Source: Eledone cirrhosa (lineage: Eukaryota). From it: DNA of 64,000 bases. The notes below the pieces were generated by a model. That model ran no database searches, had not been told where the DNA came from, and saw only the letters and a list, made by a program, of their open reading frames with translations. The number at the start of each line of letters is the position of its first letter. The first letter of the stretch is position 1. Below, one piece after another: positions 17,016 to 37,300 of this stretch. The position numbers were made by a program, and so were the translations under genes. The stretch covers positions 8,494,001 through 8,558,000 of the forward strand of contig OZ024751.1 in the NCBI GenBank assembly GCA_964016885.1, written 5' to 3'.

Positions 17016-17135
17016 GCCGTATGGCATAAATTCAGGCTGTTCGGTTTGTTGACAAACAAACGAACAAAGCGGCGTGTTGTAATAAACGTCCGCTAAACTG
17101 ATGCGTGCATATATGTATGTGTACCTGTATGTATG

Positions 17136-17188
<53 letters not shown>

Positions 17189-17354
17189 GTATATATATGC
17201 ATGCTACTGTACGTCTGTATACATATATGTATGTACGTATACATACATACTTACATTTAAGTAAGTGCCATACTAAGAGTGAGAAATGAAATTTCGTTTT
17301 CATTTTTTTCAACTTATCGTTTTCGGTATGCCTGACCGATTTAACTCACTCAAT

Positions 17355-17403
17355 ATGCAAATTAGGCTGCTCAGCCGTTAATTTTCATAAGGAAAGTATA
17401 TAC
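17355..17403 (+). promoter_or_regulatory. Candidate snRNA-type promoter cassette (octamer ATGCAAAT, PSE-like TCAGCCGTTAATTTTCATAAG, TATA-like GTATATA), one per unit
   Basis: The octamer is exact and conserved in subfamilies A, B and C upstream of the HHR. The PSE and TATA assignments are inference. Confidence 0.5.
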
Positions 17404-17435
17404 TTTCGAACGTTCAACTATCTGGCAGATGGGTA

Positions 17436-17480
17436 AACGGTGCTGATGATAGCTAACAAGCTTGAAACTAGTACATCGTT
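17436..17480 (+). ncRNA. Minimal type-I hammerhead ribozyme (subfamily A representative)
   Basis: AACGGTG-CTGATGA-T AGCT aaca AGCT T-GAA-ACTAGT-A-CATCGTT; palindromic stem III; predicted cleavage after GUA (17473). Confidence 0.9.
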
Positions 17481-17649
17481 CCTGTGTCAGTGTTGAACAA
17501 AAAGGTGACGTGGTTGCCTTAACACCGTATGGTATAATTTCAGGCTGTTCGGTTTGTTGACAAACAAACGAACAAAGCGGCGTTGTAATAAACGTCCGCT
17601 AAACTGATGCGTGCATGTATGCATGTGTACCTGTATGTATGTATGTATA

Positions 17650-17705
<56 letters not shown>

Positions 17706-18156
17706 CATGCTACTGTACGTCTGTATACATATATGTATGTACGTATACATACATACTTACATTTAAGTAAGTGCCATACTAAGAGTGAGAAATGAAATTT
17801 CGTTTTCATTTTTTTCAACTTATCGTTTTCGGTATGCCTGACCGATTTAACTCACTCAATATGCAAATTAGGCTGCTCAGCCGTTAATTTTCATAAGGAA
17901 AGTATATACTTTCGAACGTTCAACTATCTGGCAGATGGGTAAACGGTGCTGATGATAGCTAACAAGCTTGAAACTAGTACATCGTTCCTGTGTCAGTGTT
18001 GAACAAAAAAGTGACGTGGTTGCCTTAACACCGTATGGCATAAATTCAGGCTGTTCGGTTTGTTGACAAACAAACGAACAAAGCGGCGTTGTAATAAACG
18101 TCCTCTAAACTGATGCGTGCATATTATGTATGTGTACCTGTATGTATGTATGTATA

Positions 18157-18215
<59 letters not shown>

Positions 18216-18666
18216 GCATGCTACTGTACGTCTGTATACATATATGTATGTACGTATACATACATACTTACATTTAAGTAAGTGCCATACTAAGAGTGAG
18301 AAATGAAATTTCGTTTTCATTTTTTTCAACTTATCGTTTTCGGTATGCCTGACCGATTTAACTCACTCAATATGCAAATTAGGCTGCTCAGCCGTTAATT
18401 TTCATAAGGAAAGTATATACTTTCGAACGTTCAACTATCTGGCAGATGGGTAAACGGTGCTGATGATAGCTAACAAGCTTGAAACTAGTACATCGTTCCT
18501 GTGTCAGTGTTGAACAAAAAGGTGACGTGGTTGCCTTAACACCGTATGGCATAAATTCAGGCTGTTCGGTTTGTTGACAAACAAACGAACAAAGCGGCGT
18601 TGTAATAAACGTCCGCTAAACTGATGCGTGCATATATGTATGTGTACCTGTATGTATGTATGTATA

Positions 18667-18745
<79 letters not shown>

Positions 18746-19214
18746 GCATGCTACTGTACGTCTGTATACATATATGTATGTACGTATACATACATACTTA
18801 CATTTAAGTAAGTGCCATACTAAGAGTGAGAAATGAAATTTCGTTTTCATTTTTTTCAACTTATCGTTTTCGGTATGCCTGACCGATTTAACTCACTCAA
18901 TATGCAAATTAGGCTGCTCAGCCGTTAATTTTCATAATGAAAGTATATACTTTCGCAAGTTCAACTATCTGGCAGATGGGTAAACGGTGCTGATGATAGC
19001 TAACAAGCTTGAAACTAGTACATCGTTCCTGTGTCAGTGTTGAACAAAAAGGTGACGTGGTTGCCTTAACACCGTATGGCATAAATTCAGGCTGTTCGGT
19101 TTGTTGACAAACAAACGAACAAAGCGGCGTTGTAATAAACGTCCGCTAAACTGATGCGTGCATATATGTATGTGTACCTGTATGTATGTATGTATATATA
19201 TGTATGTATGTATA

Positions 19215-19273
<59 letters not shown>

Positions 19274-19678
19274 GCATGCTACTGTACGTCTGTATACCTA
19301 TATGTATGTACGTATACATACATACTTACATTTAAGTAAGTGCCAAACTAAGAGTGAGAAATGAAATTTCGTTTTCATTTTTTTCAACTTATATATATAT
19401 ATATATATATATATTTATGAATACATATAATTAGGTGTCTGTGTTTGTATGTTTATAAGTGTGTTTATGTACAAGAACCTGTTGATTTACACAATTACCT
19501 TTTCCGGACGTTCTCAGTGAGTATAAAATATTAATTATATTTTACCAGGCACAATCTATATACAAGTTAAAAGTAAGGATGATTTTTATTGTCTAACCGT
19601 TAGACTCTAACGTAACGTTTCATAATGTATGAGGATAGTCTGGGGCTTGTTGAACAAATTGCCTGTTATATATATATA

Positions 19679-20560: not shown

Positions 20561-20611
20561 AGATTCTACAGGACTAGAACTGTTTCATTCATTAGAAATC
20601 ATCAGGAATCT
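20561..20611 (-). ncRNA. Type-I hammerhead (family D)
   Basis: AGATTC-CTGATGA-T TTC taat GAA T-GAA-ACAG ttctagtc CTGT-A-GAATCT; copies at 24201-24251 and 56056-56106. Confidence 0.88.
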
Positions 20612-21479
20612 GGGTATCAACAAATAAAAATGGTATTTATAGGTCTCTACAAGTGGTAGGAGAGGGTGAGGAGTGGGATGGGTGCAGGTCATTGGTTGAT
20701 AGAAAAGGGAATTCATTAAAAGCTAATTCTACAAAGCTATAGTTTATTTTTATTTTTATTTATTTATGTTTTTAGAGTAACAAGGGCAGACAGAATTCTA
20801 TAAACAGGTTCCGGATGGCATACCATTCCTTGTCATTAAGTTTCTCTTAATCTAACAGATGGGGCTCTATGTAATTGTCTAAATAAGGAAGCATGCCCAC
20901 TTGAAAACAAATGCCTCACAAATGACATCGTATACAAATGCGATGTCATCTCAGGCACCGAGGATTGCAAAAAAACTTACATCGGCATGACCTCCAACAA
21001 CTTTAAGACCCGTTGGTATGCCCATACGCACTCCTTCAGGAGACCGGATAAATCAAATCAGACAACACTCGCCTCCTACGTTTGGGACCTCAAAAGGAAC
21101 TCCACCCCCTTCACGCTTAAATGGAAAATACTCCAGAAAGCGCGCTCTTACAACGGAGGACACAAGGTCTGCGACCTTTGTATTTCAGAGAGCTACGAAA
21201 TTTTATTCGCCAAGGGCCCGCTACTGAACAAACTCTCTGAAAACTGCCCGAACTGCATGCACAAGAACTTTGCAACTTTCAAACACTTTAAGCCAGTGTT
21301 AAAGCCCGATGGCTAAAAACGATCTCCCCCTATTGGCCCCTATACCTCCTCCCCACCCTACCCCTACCCCTCCTCAACCTGAAATACGGCCACTATGGTT
21401 ATGTGAGTACCTCTTTCGTATCTACATTTTCTGCCTGTAGAGGTGTCTTTATGTGCCTGCGTATATACGTATATTTATT

Positions 21480-23700: not shown

Positions 23701-24334
23701 CGTAAGTGTGTGAGTGAGTATGTTTTTTTGTTTTTTTGTGAATGTGTCTGTTGATTTTTGGCATATAGTTGATTAGTTTAAGAGAAGTTCGAAGATAATA
23801 GTAAGATATGCAGTCAGTATTTTGAATCTGTCTGCAGAATTCTCTAGACCTTTGTCACTTAGTAGAACCTTAATGATTTTAGCTTTTAAAGAATCTCCCT
23901 TTTCTTTAATTCTATCGACCATGACTGACCCCCCCACTGATTTTATAGACATCTGTTAGTTTAAGAGAAACTTAATGACAAGGAATTGGTATGCCATCCG
24001 GAACCTGTTTATAGAATTCTGTCTGCCCTTGTTACTCTAAAAAGATAAATAAATAAAAATAAAAATAAACTATAGCTTTGTAGAATTAGCTTTCAATGAA
24101 TTCCCTTTTCTATCAACCAATGACCTGCACCCGTCCAACTCCCCACCCTCTCCTACCACTTGTAGAGACCTATAAATACCATTTTTATTTTTTGATACCC
24201 AGATTCCTGATGATTTCTAATGAATGAAACTGTTTTAGTCCTGTAGAATCTCATCTATATTAAAACTGTTATACTCTGCTATGTATTGAGTACCTTACTT
24301 ACTGTGGTTACCTCCGATTCAACCCGGAATAACG

Positions 24335-28052: not shown

Positions 28053-28478
28053 CAGGTACACATACATATATGCACGTATCAGTTAAGCGGACGCTTATTA
28101 TAGCGCCCGCTTTGATCGTTTGTAAACAAACTGAACAGCCTGAATTTATGCCGTACGGTGTTAAGGCGACCACGTCACCTTTTTGTTCAACACTGACACA
28201 GGAACGATGTACTAGTTTCAAGCTTGTTAGCTATCATCAGCACCGTATACCCTTCTGCCAGATGGTTGAACGTTCGAAAGTATATACTTTCCTTATGAAA
28301 ATTAACGGCTGAGCAGCCTAATTTCCATATCGAGTGAGTTCGGACAGGCGTACCGAGAACGATAAGTTGCAATAAAATGAAAACGAGATTTCATTTCTCA
28401 CTCTTAGTACGGCACTTACTTAAATGTAAGTATGTATTTATACGTACATACATATATGTATACAGACGTATAGTAGCA

Positions 28479-28548
<70 letters not shown>

Positions 28549-28980
28549 CAGGTACACATACATATATGCACGTATCAGTTTAGCGGACGCTTATTATAGC
28601 GCCCGCTTTGTTCGTTTGTAAACAAATTGAACAGCCGGAATTTATGCCGTAAAGTGTTAAGGCAACCACGTCACCTTTTTGTTCAACACTGACACAGGAA
28701 CGATGTACTAGTTTCAAGCTTGTTAGCTATCATCAGCACCGTATACCCTTCTGCCAGATGGTTGAACGTTCGAAAGTATATACTTTCCTTATGAAAATTA
28801 ACGGCTGAGCAGCCTAATTTGCATATCGAGTGAATTCGGCCAGGCGTACCGAGAACGATAAGTTGTAATAACATGAAAACGATATTTCATTTCTCACTCT
28901 TAGTACGGCACTTACTTAAATGTAAGTATGTATGTATACGTACATACATATATGTATACAGACGTATAGTAGCATGTATA
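27893..28980 (-). repeat. Retrozyme-like array, subfamily A (2.2 units, 496 bp)
   Basis: HHRs at 28203-28247 and 28699-28743 on the minus strand. Confidence 0.9.
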
Positions 28981-29431: not shown

Positions 29432-30522
29432 ATAAAAACAAATAACGAAACGAAATTAAATTTCGTTTCGTTTGTAACTTACTTTTGTATGACTGACGCT
29501 TAAACAAATTGAGTTGAAAATGTACATCCACATATGTATACTGAAATACTAGTATGCATATGAATACACACACGTATACATATGTAGATGTACCAAGTTT
29601 TTGACTGGTCACTTTACTGTGAGTGTCCAGCTATTCTGTATGTAAACACACAGTCAAACCGGTTTTTAGAGTCATACTAGTTTTTGAGGAAACACCTTTC
29701 CTCTATTCTCCAGAAAGCCAGACGAGGAATATTGAACTAGTTTCGTTGTTGTTACAACTCATCAGCAATATTTACCTATCTTCCGGCCTTTCTGGAGAAT
29801 CGTAAAAGCACATATCGTTATATGCTTTTTCTATGAAAATTAGTAGTGGGCAGACTAATTTGCATAGAGTGTGAGTACGTACCGGTTCAACGGAGACGAT
29901 AAAAACAAATAACGAAACGAAATTAAATTTCGTTTCGTTTGTAACTCACTTTTGTATGACTGATGCTTAAACAATTAAGTTAAAAAGTTAAAAATGTACA
30001 TCCACATATGTATACTGAAATACTAGTATGCATATGAATACACACACGTATACATATGTAGATGTACCAATTAAGTTAAAAAGTGAGTTACAAACGAAAC
30101 GAAATTTAATTTCGTTTCGTTATTTGTTTTTATCGTCTCCGTTGAACCGGTACGTACTCACACTCTATGCAAATTAGTCTGCCCACTACTAATTTTCATA
30201 GAAAAAGCATATAACGATATGTGCTTTTACGATTCTCCAGAAAGGCCGGAAGATAGGTAAATATTGCTGATGAGTTGTAACAACAACGAAACTAGTTCAA
30301 TATTCCTTGTCTGGCTTTCTGGAGAATAGAGGAAAGGTGTTTCCTCAAAAACCAGTATGACTCTAAAAACCGGTTTGTCTGTGTGTTTACATACAGAATA
30401 GCTGGACACCCACAGTAAAGTGACCAGTGAAAAATTTGGTACATCTACATATGTATACGTGTGTGTATTCATATGCATACTAGTATTTCAGTATACATAT
30501 GTGGATGTACATTTTTAACTTA
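29432..30522. repeat. Retrozyme-like subfamily C (467-bp unit); minus block 29432-30070 joined to plus block 30070-30522
   Basis: HHR AATATTG-CTGATGA-GTTGT aaca ACAAC-GAA-ACTAGT-T-CAATATT at 29728-29772 (-) and 30260-30304 (+). Confidence 0.9.
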
Positions 30523-34388: not shown

Positions 34389-37300
34389 GCTCAAGTATTA
34401 ATGTAAGGGAGATATAGAGAGATATAGAGAGATATAGAGAGAGAAAAATTTAAAAATAGCCAGACATATTCGAGGCGTAGAAAACCCTATGTTTTAATGT
34501 ATTAGTATTTATAAAACTTACACTATATTGTAAATATCAGTATTCCTGAATGAAACAAGTATTCACAATGCGTGAAAATTCATTATCTTATGTTTAGTTT
34601 TTTAAAAAATTCATATGTCTATGTGAATCCAACTGATTCACTCCGCAAATTCAAAGTTACCGGAAAACATTCTCAATGTGGTATAAACATTTGAGCGTAT
34701 TATTATTCTTGCGATTACTCTACAAGATTATCTATCAAGCAGAAATAGAGAGCAGATTTCAATATACTAATCGAAAATATATATTATATTATAAGCAGAG
34801 ATAACAATAATAATGATAATAAGTAAAAATATATAAAAATATAAAAATATAGAATAGAAAACTAAAAAAGAATATTACGAAAGAATATTACATAATAAAA
34901 ATATTGCATATTAAAAATACTATGTTTTAAAATTATTACGTATTAAAACTTTACATATAAAAATATTAAAAATAAAAATAAAATAAAATAAAAAATAAAA
35001 AATAAAAATATAAAAATATTATAGAATACTACAATACTAAAAGAATAAAAATAAAAATAAAAATAAAAATAAAAATAAAAATAAAAAATAAACCACAAAG
35101 AACAACCCTTCAAGGTTAATTGACAATATATTGCCAAGTTCACTACAAGACAAAGCCAAAAATTATCTATCAAATCACATCTAGCAAGGAATATCGCAAA
35201 AAAAAAAAAGGTTATGATGTCCAATAATGTCTACATATGTTCCTATATTTAATATATAAGTTTATCAAGTGTAAGGTTAATTCATAAAATTTGGAGCATC
35301 GGCTTTTAGGGTAGCTTAATTTTTCATGAGGAATGTTTAGATAAAAATAAAAATAAAAAATAAAAATAAAAATAAATACAATAAAATAAACAGTAAAAAG
35401 AGGGAATCAAAGATTTAGGAATCAAAAGATTTATCGGCTAGTTCTCATATAAATATAAATCAAACTAAATATACTACATAAATTTAAATTTATATTTAAA
35501 CGTTGAGTTTAATCTATGTTTGCAACAACTGAATAAATTTGTCCGTAGGTTAAGGGAATTTTTAGATTTTAGTATAAAGAATATCTCCTCTGCGCAGAGG
35601 TCACATGTCTCAGAGGATGAATTAAAAGGAATCCCTCTTGAGACTATATTCCAAGCCGTCGAATATCTAACGTTATCTAGCTTAAGTTGCCAGAGTACAC
35701 CTGATAGTGCCGTTGAAGATTTTTTATTTGGATCTGTGAAAGAATTCTTGTGGTTATTATAGCGAAGTTTAAATTCCGTCGATGTGGAACCGACGTAGTT
35801 AAAAGAATTAGAGTCAGTATTAACATTACAATTGTATACTATATTTTTAACTAAGCAGTTGTTATTTAACGGACATTTAGATCTATCTCTACAGTTGCAT
35901 TTGTTAACTTGTATATTATTTTATGCTATTATCAGTAGTTTTTAAGTTCCTATTATTTATTCTATTAATATTTTGTGCTAAATTTTTGGTGGATGAATAG
36001 GTTAATTTAATTGTATGCCTATTGAAGATTGAGTGGTACCTATGTGTTCTATGGAAGCGATTATCAAGAGCTTTGAAAAATAATTTAGCGATGTGGGTTT
36101 AATGTTTAGTGAGAAAGGGGGGGGCAAACCAAATTATGTTCCTAGTTCTATTCTTTTTTGTCCTTTGGAATTATTGTAATGCTTTCTATTATAGTTGTTA
36201 ATGTTGTTGCCATAATTAAAAAAGTTGTTACTTTGTTTAGTTTGTTTTATCATTATCTATGTACACAATCTTATCAGCATACCCTGCCCTAGCTAGTGCA
36301 TCATTATAGTATTGGGCCTTTTCGTCAAAAATCTTTCTATTCGACGAGATCCTAGAGATACGCTTTTGGACTGAGTTTACTATAGTGTTTTTGACAGATC
36401 TGGGGTGGTTAGAGTTAAAGTTGACATAGTTTAAGTTTTCATTCAACTTGTGAAAAGGATAGTGGAGATATGTGTTGAGATTTAATGTTATATCTAGGAA
36501 ATTGACTATTCTATGGTTGTTCTCAATTTCTATTTTAAGGTTAAAGTAATTAAAAAATTTTGTAATTTGTTTACATTTTCTATTTAGTTCAGGGTTATTA
36601 TTATTAATGAGTAAAAGCATGTCATCCCTATATAAACCTCCGGTAGTACCAGGTATTTTCCTATGTAGCGAATTGATTAAAAATAAGCCACAAGGTCAGT
36701 TACTTGAGCTGAGTCGGAAGATCCCATAGTTATGTCAAAATTGCTATCTCTATCTGCTCTGGTCATAATTTGTCATCAAATTCTATCAAAGTTTTCCTAG
36801 CCGATAATATAATATGCATTTCTTTGCTAGTTAGGTCCGTATGTTTGAATGCGTAATTTAGTGCCTTATTTAGTAGACTAGGGGTAATAGAAGAATAATA
36901 GTTAGCTATATCAAGTTGAATAAACCTATTATTATTGTCATATTTAATTTGCCTAAAACCACTCAACAACCTCTCCGTTCCCTTCCACAAGCTCAGGTTA
37001 GATACATAATCCAAGTTCTTAATTTGCAGTATCACCCTGTCAAGAATGTTTTTGCTTAATTTGCCCAGGTCCGATTTTGAAGGTGCGATTAATCTAACTG
37101 GCAGGTCAATCTCAAAATTCCTCTTGTGGTCCTTCATATTGATCTTCGGTTTCCTGGGCACAAAAGGTTGTGTTCTGTTCTCAATTTCCAACTCATGCAT
37201 TATACAAGATGCTTCAACATTCATTTTCACAAGTTCGGTCTTATCTGCTACCTTGTATTTTTTTCCTCAGCTCTTTCAGTATGAGGCCATTATACATGTC

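Follow-up and report, generated by a model that had tools for sequence, protein, structure and literature searches.

Hammerhead units and cassettes in the window

The window, that is, the whole analysed stretch of 64,000 nt, comes from Eledone cirrhosa (OZ024751.1, 8,494,001-8,558,000), the genome of which has 3.0 Gb and is rich in TA microsatellite. On the forward strand, it carries a family A tandem array (17017-19392) with four full modules, each consisting of a short cassette of promoter-like words and a hammerhead ribozyme; the octamer-to-octamer distances are 506, 511 and 530 nt, corresponding to units of about 500 bp. The array is flanked by (TA)n tracts and ends 37 nt short of the position of the next octamer. 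The type I hammerhead of the first module lies at 17436-17480 (core 17443-17473), with stem I formed by 17436-17442 and 17474-17480 and extending to about 17412/17498, the motifs CUGAUGA (17443-17449) and GAAAC (17464-17468), a minimal, palindromic helix III, and a cut predicted from pattern and fold after GUA at 17473. No Rfam match within the window reached the gathering score, and the best match of this hammerhead was HH9 with 18.5 bits (E 0.057; cut-off 52). As well, each A unit has a (TA)n tract tipping a very long, perfect-looking hairpin (17608-17750), and length variation of this tract sets the length of the unit.

The cassette begins with the block T-ATGCAAAT-TAG (17354-17365), in which the octamer ATGCAAAT occupies 17355-17362 and which represents the 5' arm of a predicted RNA hairpin. 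The word TCAGC at octamer +16 (17371-17375) matches the short YCAGY core of host RNA polymerase II (Pol II) snRNA genes, while the remainder of the 21-nt 'PSE' block (17376-17388) is the pairing partner of the octamer arm, varies between copies and families, and found no counterpart in the host promoters. A TATA word, TATATA (17397-17402; octamer +42, core +26), is located within a palindrome or hairpin at 17392-17407, and a T4 (17297-17300) and a T7 run (17303-17309), which would stop Pol III, form the 3' arm of a predicted hairpin. The octamer, block, TATA word, T-run and hammerhead of the initial annotation were all confirmed at their positions, and its caveat that the TATA word also belongs to a palindrome holds, with the octamer lying in a hairpin too.

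Further family A cassettes are present at 17861, 18372 and 18902 (+; 17861-18910), and A-type units were found at 28210-28824 (-; octamer at 28824), where the second unit has ATGGAAAT, and at 45713 (-), 50967 (-) and 51370 (+). Two family C cassettes stand head to head in 29847-30297 (29865 -, 30167 +), with CCACT at +16, TATAA at +43 and the ribozyme at +100. Subfamily B cassettes occupy 56487-58173 (56505 -, 56927 -, 57203 +, 57629 +, 58055 +); the block after TCAGCC is deleted in 56505, and the octamer is changed in 57629. Head-to-head junctions sit at short palindromes just upstream of the octamer (L177:8196-8380; window 56945-56960). The pattern octamer-NRG-5N-YCA matched 14 times in the window against 0.01 expected (100 shuffles), and all 14 matches lie in A, B or C units, representing copies of three lineages rather than 14 independent events.

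Near-identical tandem copies of family A were found on many contigs (at least 43 matches, with 40 of 752 candidates scored), and the arrays often stand head to head with 3' ends flanked by (TA)n. Inverted 5' copies and (TA)n targets have been described as an insertion pattern of Penelope-like elements (10.1101/2021.04.23.441226). With a type I hammerhead in every unit, short, tandem, non-coding units dispersed in high copy number, and this Penelope-type insertion pattern, the ~500-bp tandem unit is, on sequence grounds, a non-LTR retrozyme.

Cassette families and copy number

The cassette is known in five families, A/B, C, D, E and F, and the octamer is followed by YCA at exactly +16 in all five. 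The cassette had been ascribed to three otherwise diverged subfamilies; A and B, with 70% identity over the unit, proved to be a single family, while sharing across diverged families stood, TATGCAAAT being the sole 9-mer common to natural A, C, D and E units (no shuffle among 300 shared any 9-mer) and families D and E having almost nothing else in common with A. An alignment of eight copies covering all families left TATGCAAAT, G at +10, CA at +17/18 and ATATA invariant. The conservation of the octamer in a larger alignment, on which the original proposal had depended, thus survives across five families.

The window and 60 ten-kb stretches (together 664 kb) were scanned loosely for hammerheads, which gave 73 hits, some of them surely false. 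By hand count, the exact octamer was found at most 220 nt upstream in 23 of the 28 hits belonging to families A/B, C, D and E, and in none of the remaining 45. Family F emerged from a background list. In 50 stretches at round coordinates (499,800 bases), 11 of the 48 sampled octamers had NRG and YCA at +16, every one a recognisable element copy, with the ribozyme core 80-99 nt downstream in eight. Extrapolation from these 11 in 499,800 bases gives about 66,000 cassettes genome-wide (Poisson range about 33,000-118,000).

The +16 word is TCAGC in 30/32 A/B/F copies and 15/15 F copies, with about seven F copies included in the A/B copy set, CCACT in 15/16 C copies, TCAGT in 24/24 D copies and TCACC in 11/18 E copies. 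The TATA word, the position of which is uncertain by 2 nt within (TA) runs, starts at +42 in 17/19 A/B copies, at +43 in 7/8 F copies and at +45 in 11/18 D and 8/10 E copies; in family C the word is TATAAC, at +43 by eye, and 7/7 copies fail the search pattern. All five reference units have a T-run, namely T7 in A, T6 in B and D, T5 in C and T4 in E. In addition, a long inverted repeat of family D (L205:1178-1614; L190-L208) encloses two modules at a 66-nt distance, and both repeat the octamer with TCAGT at +16.

snRNA-type promoters of the host

The host promoter map was drawn from loci L031-L120 and L229-L260, and the polymerase classes are presumed ones, following the usual assignment of these genes. 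The Pol III octamer set comprises seven loci, U6 (3), U6atac, MRP and tRNA-Sec (2); nine of 13 distinct U6 upstream sequences and seven of eight U6atac hits carry no octamer-type word at -76 to -79, resemble retrocopies or disrupted copies and were excluded as probable pseudogenes (one near-duplicate is uncounted). The block T-ATG(C/G)(A/T)AAT-(T/G)AG is present at -76 to -79 in all seven kept loci, with the exact octamer in five, CCT at +15/16 in six, and TATA at -30/-31. Downstream of both tRNA-Sec genes (L119, L120), a GC-rich hairpin precedes the T-run terminator.

The Pol II-type set, near-duplicates excluded, comprises 21 loci (U1 5, U2 4, U5 5, U4 3, U12 1, U3 3). An octamer-type word within -100 was found in none of the 21, and one U4 group has ATGGAAAT at -109. 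A YCA core is present at -55 to -58 in 20 of the 21, the core words being TCAGT (13), TCATT (3), CCAGC (2, in U12 and one U4), CCAGT (1), TCAAT (1) and CCTGT (1). AATTA is found near -90 in U1, U2, U4, U5 and U12 and at -98/-103 in U3, and a TATA-like word near -30 occurs in both classes. The 7SK and RNase P genes have T-run ends and carry TCAGT at -63 and -66, respectively 33 and 32 nt before TATA; an octamer at -77 is absent from 7SK, RNase P and SRP, and SRP also has no core. Core-to-TATA distances are 25-27 in the Pol II genes and 31-33 in the Pol III genes, a spacing that separates the two classes among the host sequences compared. The comparison also maps the snRNA promoters of this genome, where spacing and a proximal octamer distinguish the Pol II from the Pol III genes. 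Moreover, a distal word, TAYYTCCCTT, at about -250 to -290 is common to U1, U2, U3, U6, U12 and RNase P, and the host 3' box resembles AAAA(T/A)CAGA(C/T)T.

Comparison of the cassette with host promoters

Scored with the U6-class matrix, the cassettes reached 20.0 (A), 21.8 (C), 16.0 (B), 15.1 (E), and 12.1 and 11.1 bits (D), compared with 13.2-25.9 bits for host genes left out in turn, and ranking the 48 sampled octamers on their flanks alone placed five A/B copies on top. The octamer here corresponds not to a distal enhancer but to the proximal word of host U6-class genes. With the 15-column Pol II core matrix, the scores were 0.1 (A), 2.1 (B), -8.5 (C), -0.7 (E), and 5.7 and 14.1 bits (D), compared with 7.5-20.1 bits for host genes left out in turn, on a matrix that predates the finding of the CCAGC variants in U4 and U12. 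The extended core TCAGT-NNN-T-N-TA is good in the D copy with 14.1 bits and poor in A, B, C and E, and the match of the elements to the host Pol II core amounts to 5 nt. Compared with the PSE derived from the host, the proposed 21-nt PSE thus agrees, weakly, over its first 5 nt; beyond these, it is a hairpin arm, and no part of the block varies more.

The core-to-TATA distance is Pol II-like (25-27) in A/B (26) and in C and F (27), and mostly intermediate (29) in D and E. The octamer-to-TATA distance is 42-45, compared with 46-48 in all seven host U6-class loci, and position +16 has TCA or CCA where the host U6-class genes have CCT at +15/16. Among the features of host type 3 Pol III genes, the elements share the octamer block and have neither the 46-48 spacing nor CCT, and the transcribed region free of T-runs is not found for unit-length RNA, which has T4-T7 runs in all five reference units. 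The distal TAYYTCCCTT and a host-type 3' box were found in none of the five reference units, and AATTA at about -90 is likewise missing from the units. An AATTA-like word 33 nt before TCAGC, loosely present in A and absent in C, D and E, was dropped, as was a resemblance to the host 3' box near the D array end, which lies on the wrong side of that end. An octamer near a Penelope-like ORF (L144, L060) was rejected as a cassette, having no YCA at +16 and no TATA at +42 to +48.

Judged by its words and distances, the cassette is a hybrid of a U6-class octamer block, a Pol II-type core and Pol II-type spacing, and this exact layout was found in no host gene among U1, U2, U3, U4, U5, U6, U6atac, U12, 7SK, SRP, RNase P, MRP and tRNA-Sec. 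The designation as an snRNA-type promoter cassette, therefore, holds for the resemblance to host snRNA promoters in words and positions, but not for an exact host layout. As in host U6-class (type 3) promoters, the octamer is directly upstream of the PSE position and is followed by TATA, which is also the layout of the compact vertebrate H1 promoter. The elements differ from the host U6-class in having TCA for CCT at +15/16, a 2-6 nt shorter distance to TATA, no distal word, and a position internal to a mobile unit full of T-runs.

Sequence-specific and hairpin constraints

Both the octamer and the TATA word are located inside predicted RNA hairpins (the TATA hairpin in A, C, D, E and F), the TATA hairpin is kept in A and C with different sequences, and the whole unit folds with z = -9.5. 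Moreover, most A/B, C and E junctions place the array 3' end 26-46 nt upstream of the octamer, a position that a priming signal could impose. The block could, on these grounds, be an RNA element instead of a promoter, with hairpins that stabilise the circle or a signal for a helper reverse transcriptase or a host protein, and with transcription by read-through. We consider this rather unlikely, in that it leaves the match to host promoter words (flanking T, (T/G)AG) and YCA at +16 unexplained, and in that the hammerheads of other, Penelope-like families have no octamer within 220 nt (the 45 hits above).

The distribution of changes bears on the same question. Departures from the commonest letter among 32 distinct A/B/F copies amount to 1.2% in the octamer and 1.2% at +16 to +20, compared with 12.1% at +8 to +15, 16.6% in the partner arm, 5.9% in the TATA word and 6.7% in CUGANGA. 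This lopsided constraint argues against pairing alone, because pairing alone would let both arms drift together. In C, D and E, the octamer departs by 3.9%, 1.0% and 3.5%, and its surroundings by roughly 0-8% (two E segments reach 11-13%). Within these three families, where copy differences are mostly post-insertion decay, the octamer has no clear advantage in conservation over the bases around it. The predicted partners of the octamer are different ones in each family: they pair with mismatches, by way of G-U in F, and in D are located upstream. Since the octamer and YCA stay fixed while the pairing partners change, a sequence-specific role is favoured over a purely structural one. The cassette block is probably under both promoter and RNA-hairpin constraints, and the position of the array 3' ends may leave room for an RNA-level signal to the helper enzyme.

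Proposed promoter function and retrozyme cycle

The cassette is likely to be a working promoter of either polymerase, and its words and spacing make an internal SNAPc-type promoter, probably recruiting Pol II, our main reading, with a probability of roughly 55%. SNAPc and a POU factor would bind the cassette, and Pol II would start near 17427-17428, about 46 nt before the hammerhead cut. Host spacing predicts this start from TATA +30 and core +56/57, and 17432 from octamer +77 (17427-17432 overall), within the range of 17427-17435 initially proposed for +1. The ribozyme would then remove the short leader, while the transcript would read through the T-runs and the cassette of the next unit, and two ribozymes would release unit-length RNA with the promoter inside. 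The monomer might circularise, and a Penelope-like element, as a putative helper, might copy the circle by reverse transcription into (TA)n sites, whereby each new tandem array would regain a promoter ahead of its ribozyme. The retrozyme cycle underlying this scheme is that proposed in PMC7229834 and 10.64898/2026.07.22.740005.

We prefer Pol II on account of the spacing and of the T-runs that unit-length RNA has to cross, with Pol III as a possible polymerase as well. The whole units present in new arrays imply a template RNA that has crossed T4-T7 runs, which fits Pol II. In vertebrates, a TATA box directs Pol III (PMC6004067), but the TATA word does not decide the polymerase here, because host Pol II genes also have a TATA-like word. 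In Drosophila U1 and U6, the PSEs for Pol II and for Pol III differ in sequence, and the spacing to the downstream element is 8 versus 12 bp (PMC4227766), which parallels 25-27 versus 31-33 in this host. According to the same source, the choice of polymerase in flies depends on the sequence of the PSE and not on the downstream element; the spacing by itself may, accordingly, not settle the matter in this host.

The sequence match is strongest for the Pol III-specific octamer block, and A/B and C have a hairpin and T5-T7 just upstream of the cassette, with array 3' ends clustering right after (12 distinct A junctions at -37; three C junctions at -33). The cassette might, accordingly, be a Pol III promoter of the U6 class (type 3), with the T-run some 45-55 nt ahead of the next octamer terminating the majority of its transcripts and rare read-through giving promoter-bearing monomers. 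We regard this as unlikely, since the octamer-to-TATA distance departs from that of all seven host loci and a terminated transcript would not bring the promoter into new copies. Furthermore, array ends lie 5-8 nt past the T-run in A/B, without a T-run at the end in E, and mostly before the T6 in D; the T-run as a general cause of array ends was rejected, as D and E do not fit. It is very improbable that a POU factor on the octamer, with an inverted octamer-like partner, activates a Pol II start of the common TATA-dependent kind in which SNAPc takes no part, as the exact POU octamer, an inverted ATGCAT-type word on the B partner arm and the D octamer pair 66 nt apart might suggest, given that YCA at +16 is kept as well as the octamer, that both D modules repeat the core along with the octamer, and that D and F lack the inverted word.

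To return to the SNAPc-type Pol II promoter, its origin may be sought, tentatively and with more doubt than confidence, in the capture of a U6-class promoter by a retrozyme clade and its conversion to Pol II by a core swap and a shortened core-to-TATA distance. If true, such capture and conversion would have shortened the core-to-TATA distance by half a helical turn, permitting read-through of the element's own T-runs, and the promoter would double as an RNA structure. Tens of thousands of natural variants would then inform on how an snRNA promoter chooses its polymerase.

Contigs of sequencing runs

Six sequencing runs of unrecorded kind were available as contigs only. On GAPDH, run X4 is RNA-like, with depths of 10,000-58,000 in exon bins and 0-13 in intron bins apart from intronic repeats, and loose ends of its contigs continue into the neighbouring exon; run X1 is DNA-like. 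X4 has a 122-nt contig identical to 17353-17474 and so contains the cassette itself, although this contig may be of either strand and might also stem from pre-mRNA or DNA carry-over. Relative to X1, the summed contig depth of X4 over the ribozyme exceeds that over 17313-17429 by a factor of about 3-5. This step would fit a start near 17430 and is taken as a lead only, contig depth being unable to rank parts of a gene, an unrelated intronic repeat having a much higher X4/X1 ratio, and the subfamily mix differing between runs.

Relation to known systems

Newt satellite 2 has been reported to combine an snRNA promoter with Pol II (Coats, Zhang and Epstein 1994; Cremisi 1992, cited in PMC2220036 and PMC6765202). 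The satellite 2 of newts and salamanders is described as a tandem hammerhead repeat with an internal snRNA-type promoter, as is the unit here; this layout has been in the newt literature since 1994, and the cassette is not a new kind of system. The present case differs from the satellite as described in its phylum, in its at least five families, in an octamer that abuts the core, and in the presence of TATA. In Schistosoma, hammerhead SINE-like repeats are described with a Pol III promoter, the promoter of one unit transcribing the next (PMC6765202); this and the need for a tandem form in propagation would be shared, whereas the promoter there is of the Pol III type.

The units resemble metazoan non-LTR retrozymes as described (Cervera and de la Pena 2020, PMC7229834; 10.64898/2026.07.22.740005) in their tandem 340-510 nt units, type I hammerhead, low GC, absence of an ORF, strong fold and co-existing Penelope-like elements. 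The main text of PMC7229834 describes no internal promoter and uses the word only for the T7 promoter, and the word has no occurrence in the main text of Li, Clavereau and Pollet 2026 (10.64898/2026.07.22.740005). Animal retrozymes have been reported to be intensely transcribed in most tissues, with the driver unstated in these two main texts, and newt satellite 2 and the Schistosoma repeats are the only promoter precedents found. No report of a promoter in mollusc retrozymes or of cephalopod snRNA promoters was found in the literature covered, in which subscription and older papers are thinly represented. What drives transcription becomes directly testable with a cassette that is kept in five families, has two separable motifs and allows a start site to be predicted. 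If the capture and conversion of a U6-class promoter is true, SNAPc promoters would, together with the newt case, be a general engine of animal retrozyme expression.

Candidate helper elements

Broken frames with Penelope-like reverse transcriptase and GIY-YIG-like sequence are present in the window at 940-2664 (-), 35474-37266 (-), 53558-54433 (-) and 20840-21316 (+), and at locus L144; they were recognised by eye, and the four tested gave no Pfam hit. These broken Penelope-like frames, which have their own hammerhead families without an octamer, are candidate helpers. Another hammerhead family is located at Penelope-like 3' ends (window 20578-20605 (-), 24207-24245 and 56062-56100; L059), with the word TATAAATA about 30 nt before the core and no octamer. 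The window also contains LINE reverse transcriptase fragments at 60368-62476 (-), with a match to RVT_1 (E 2e-26).
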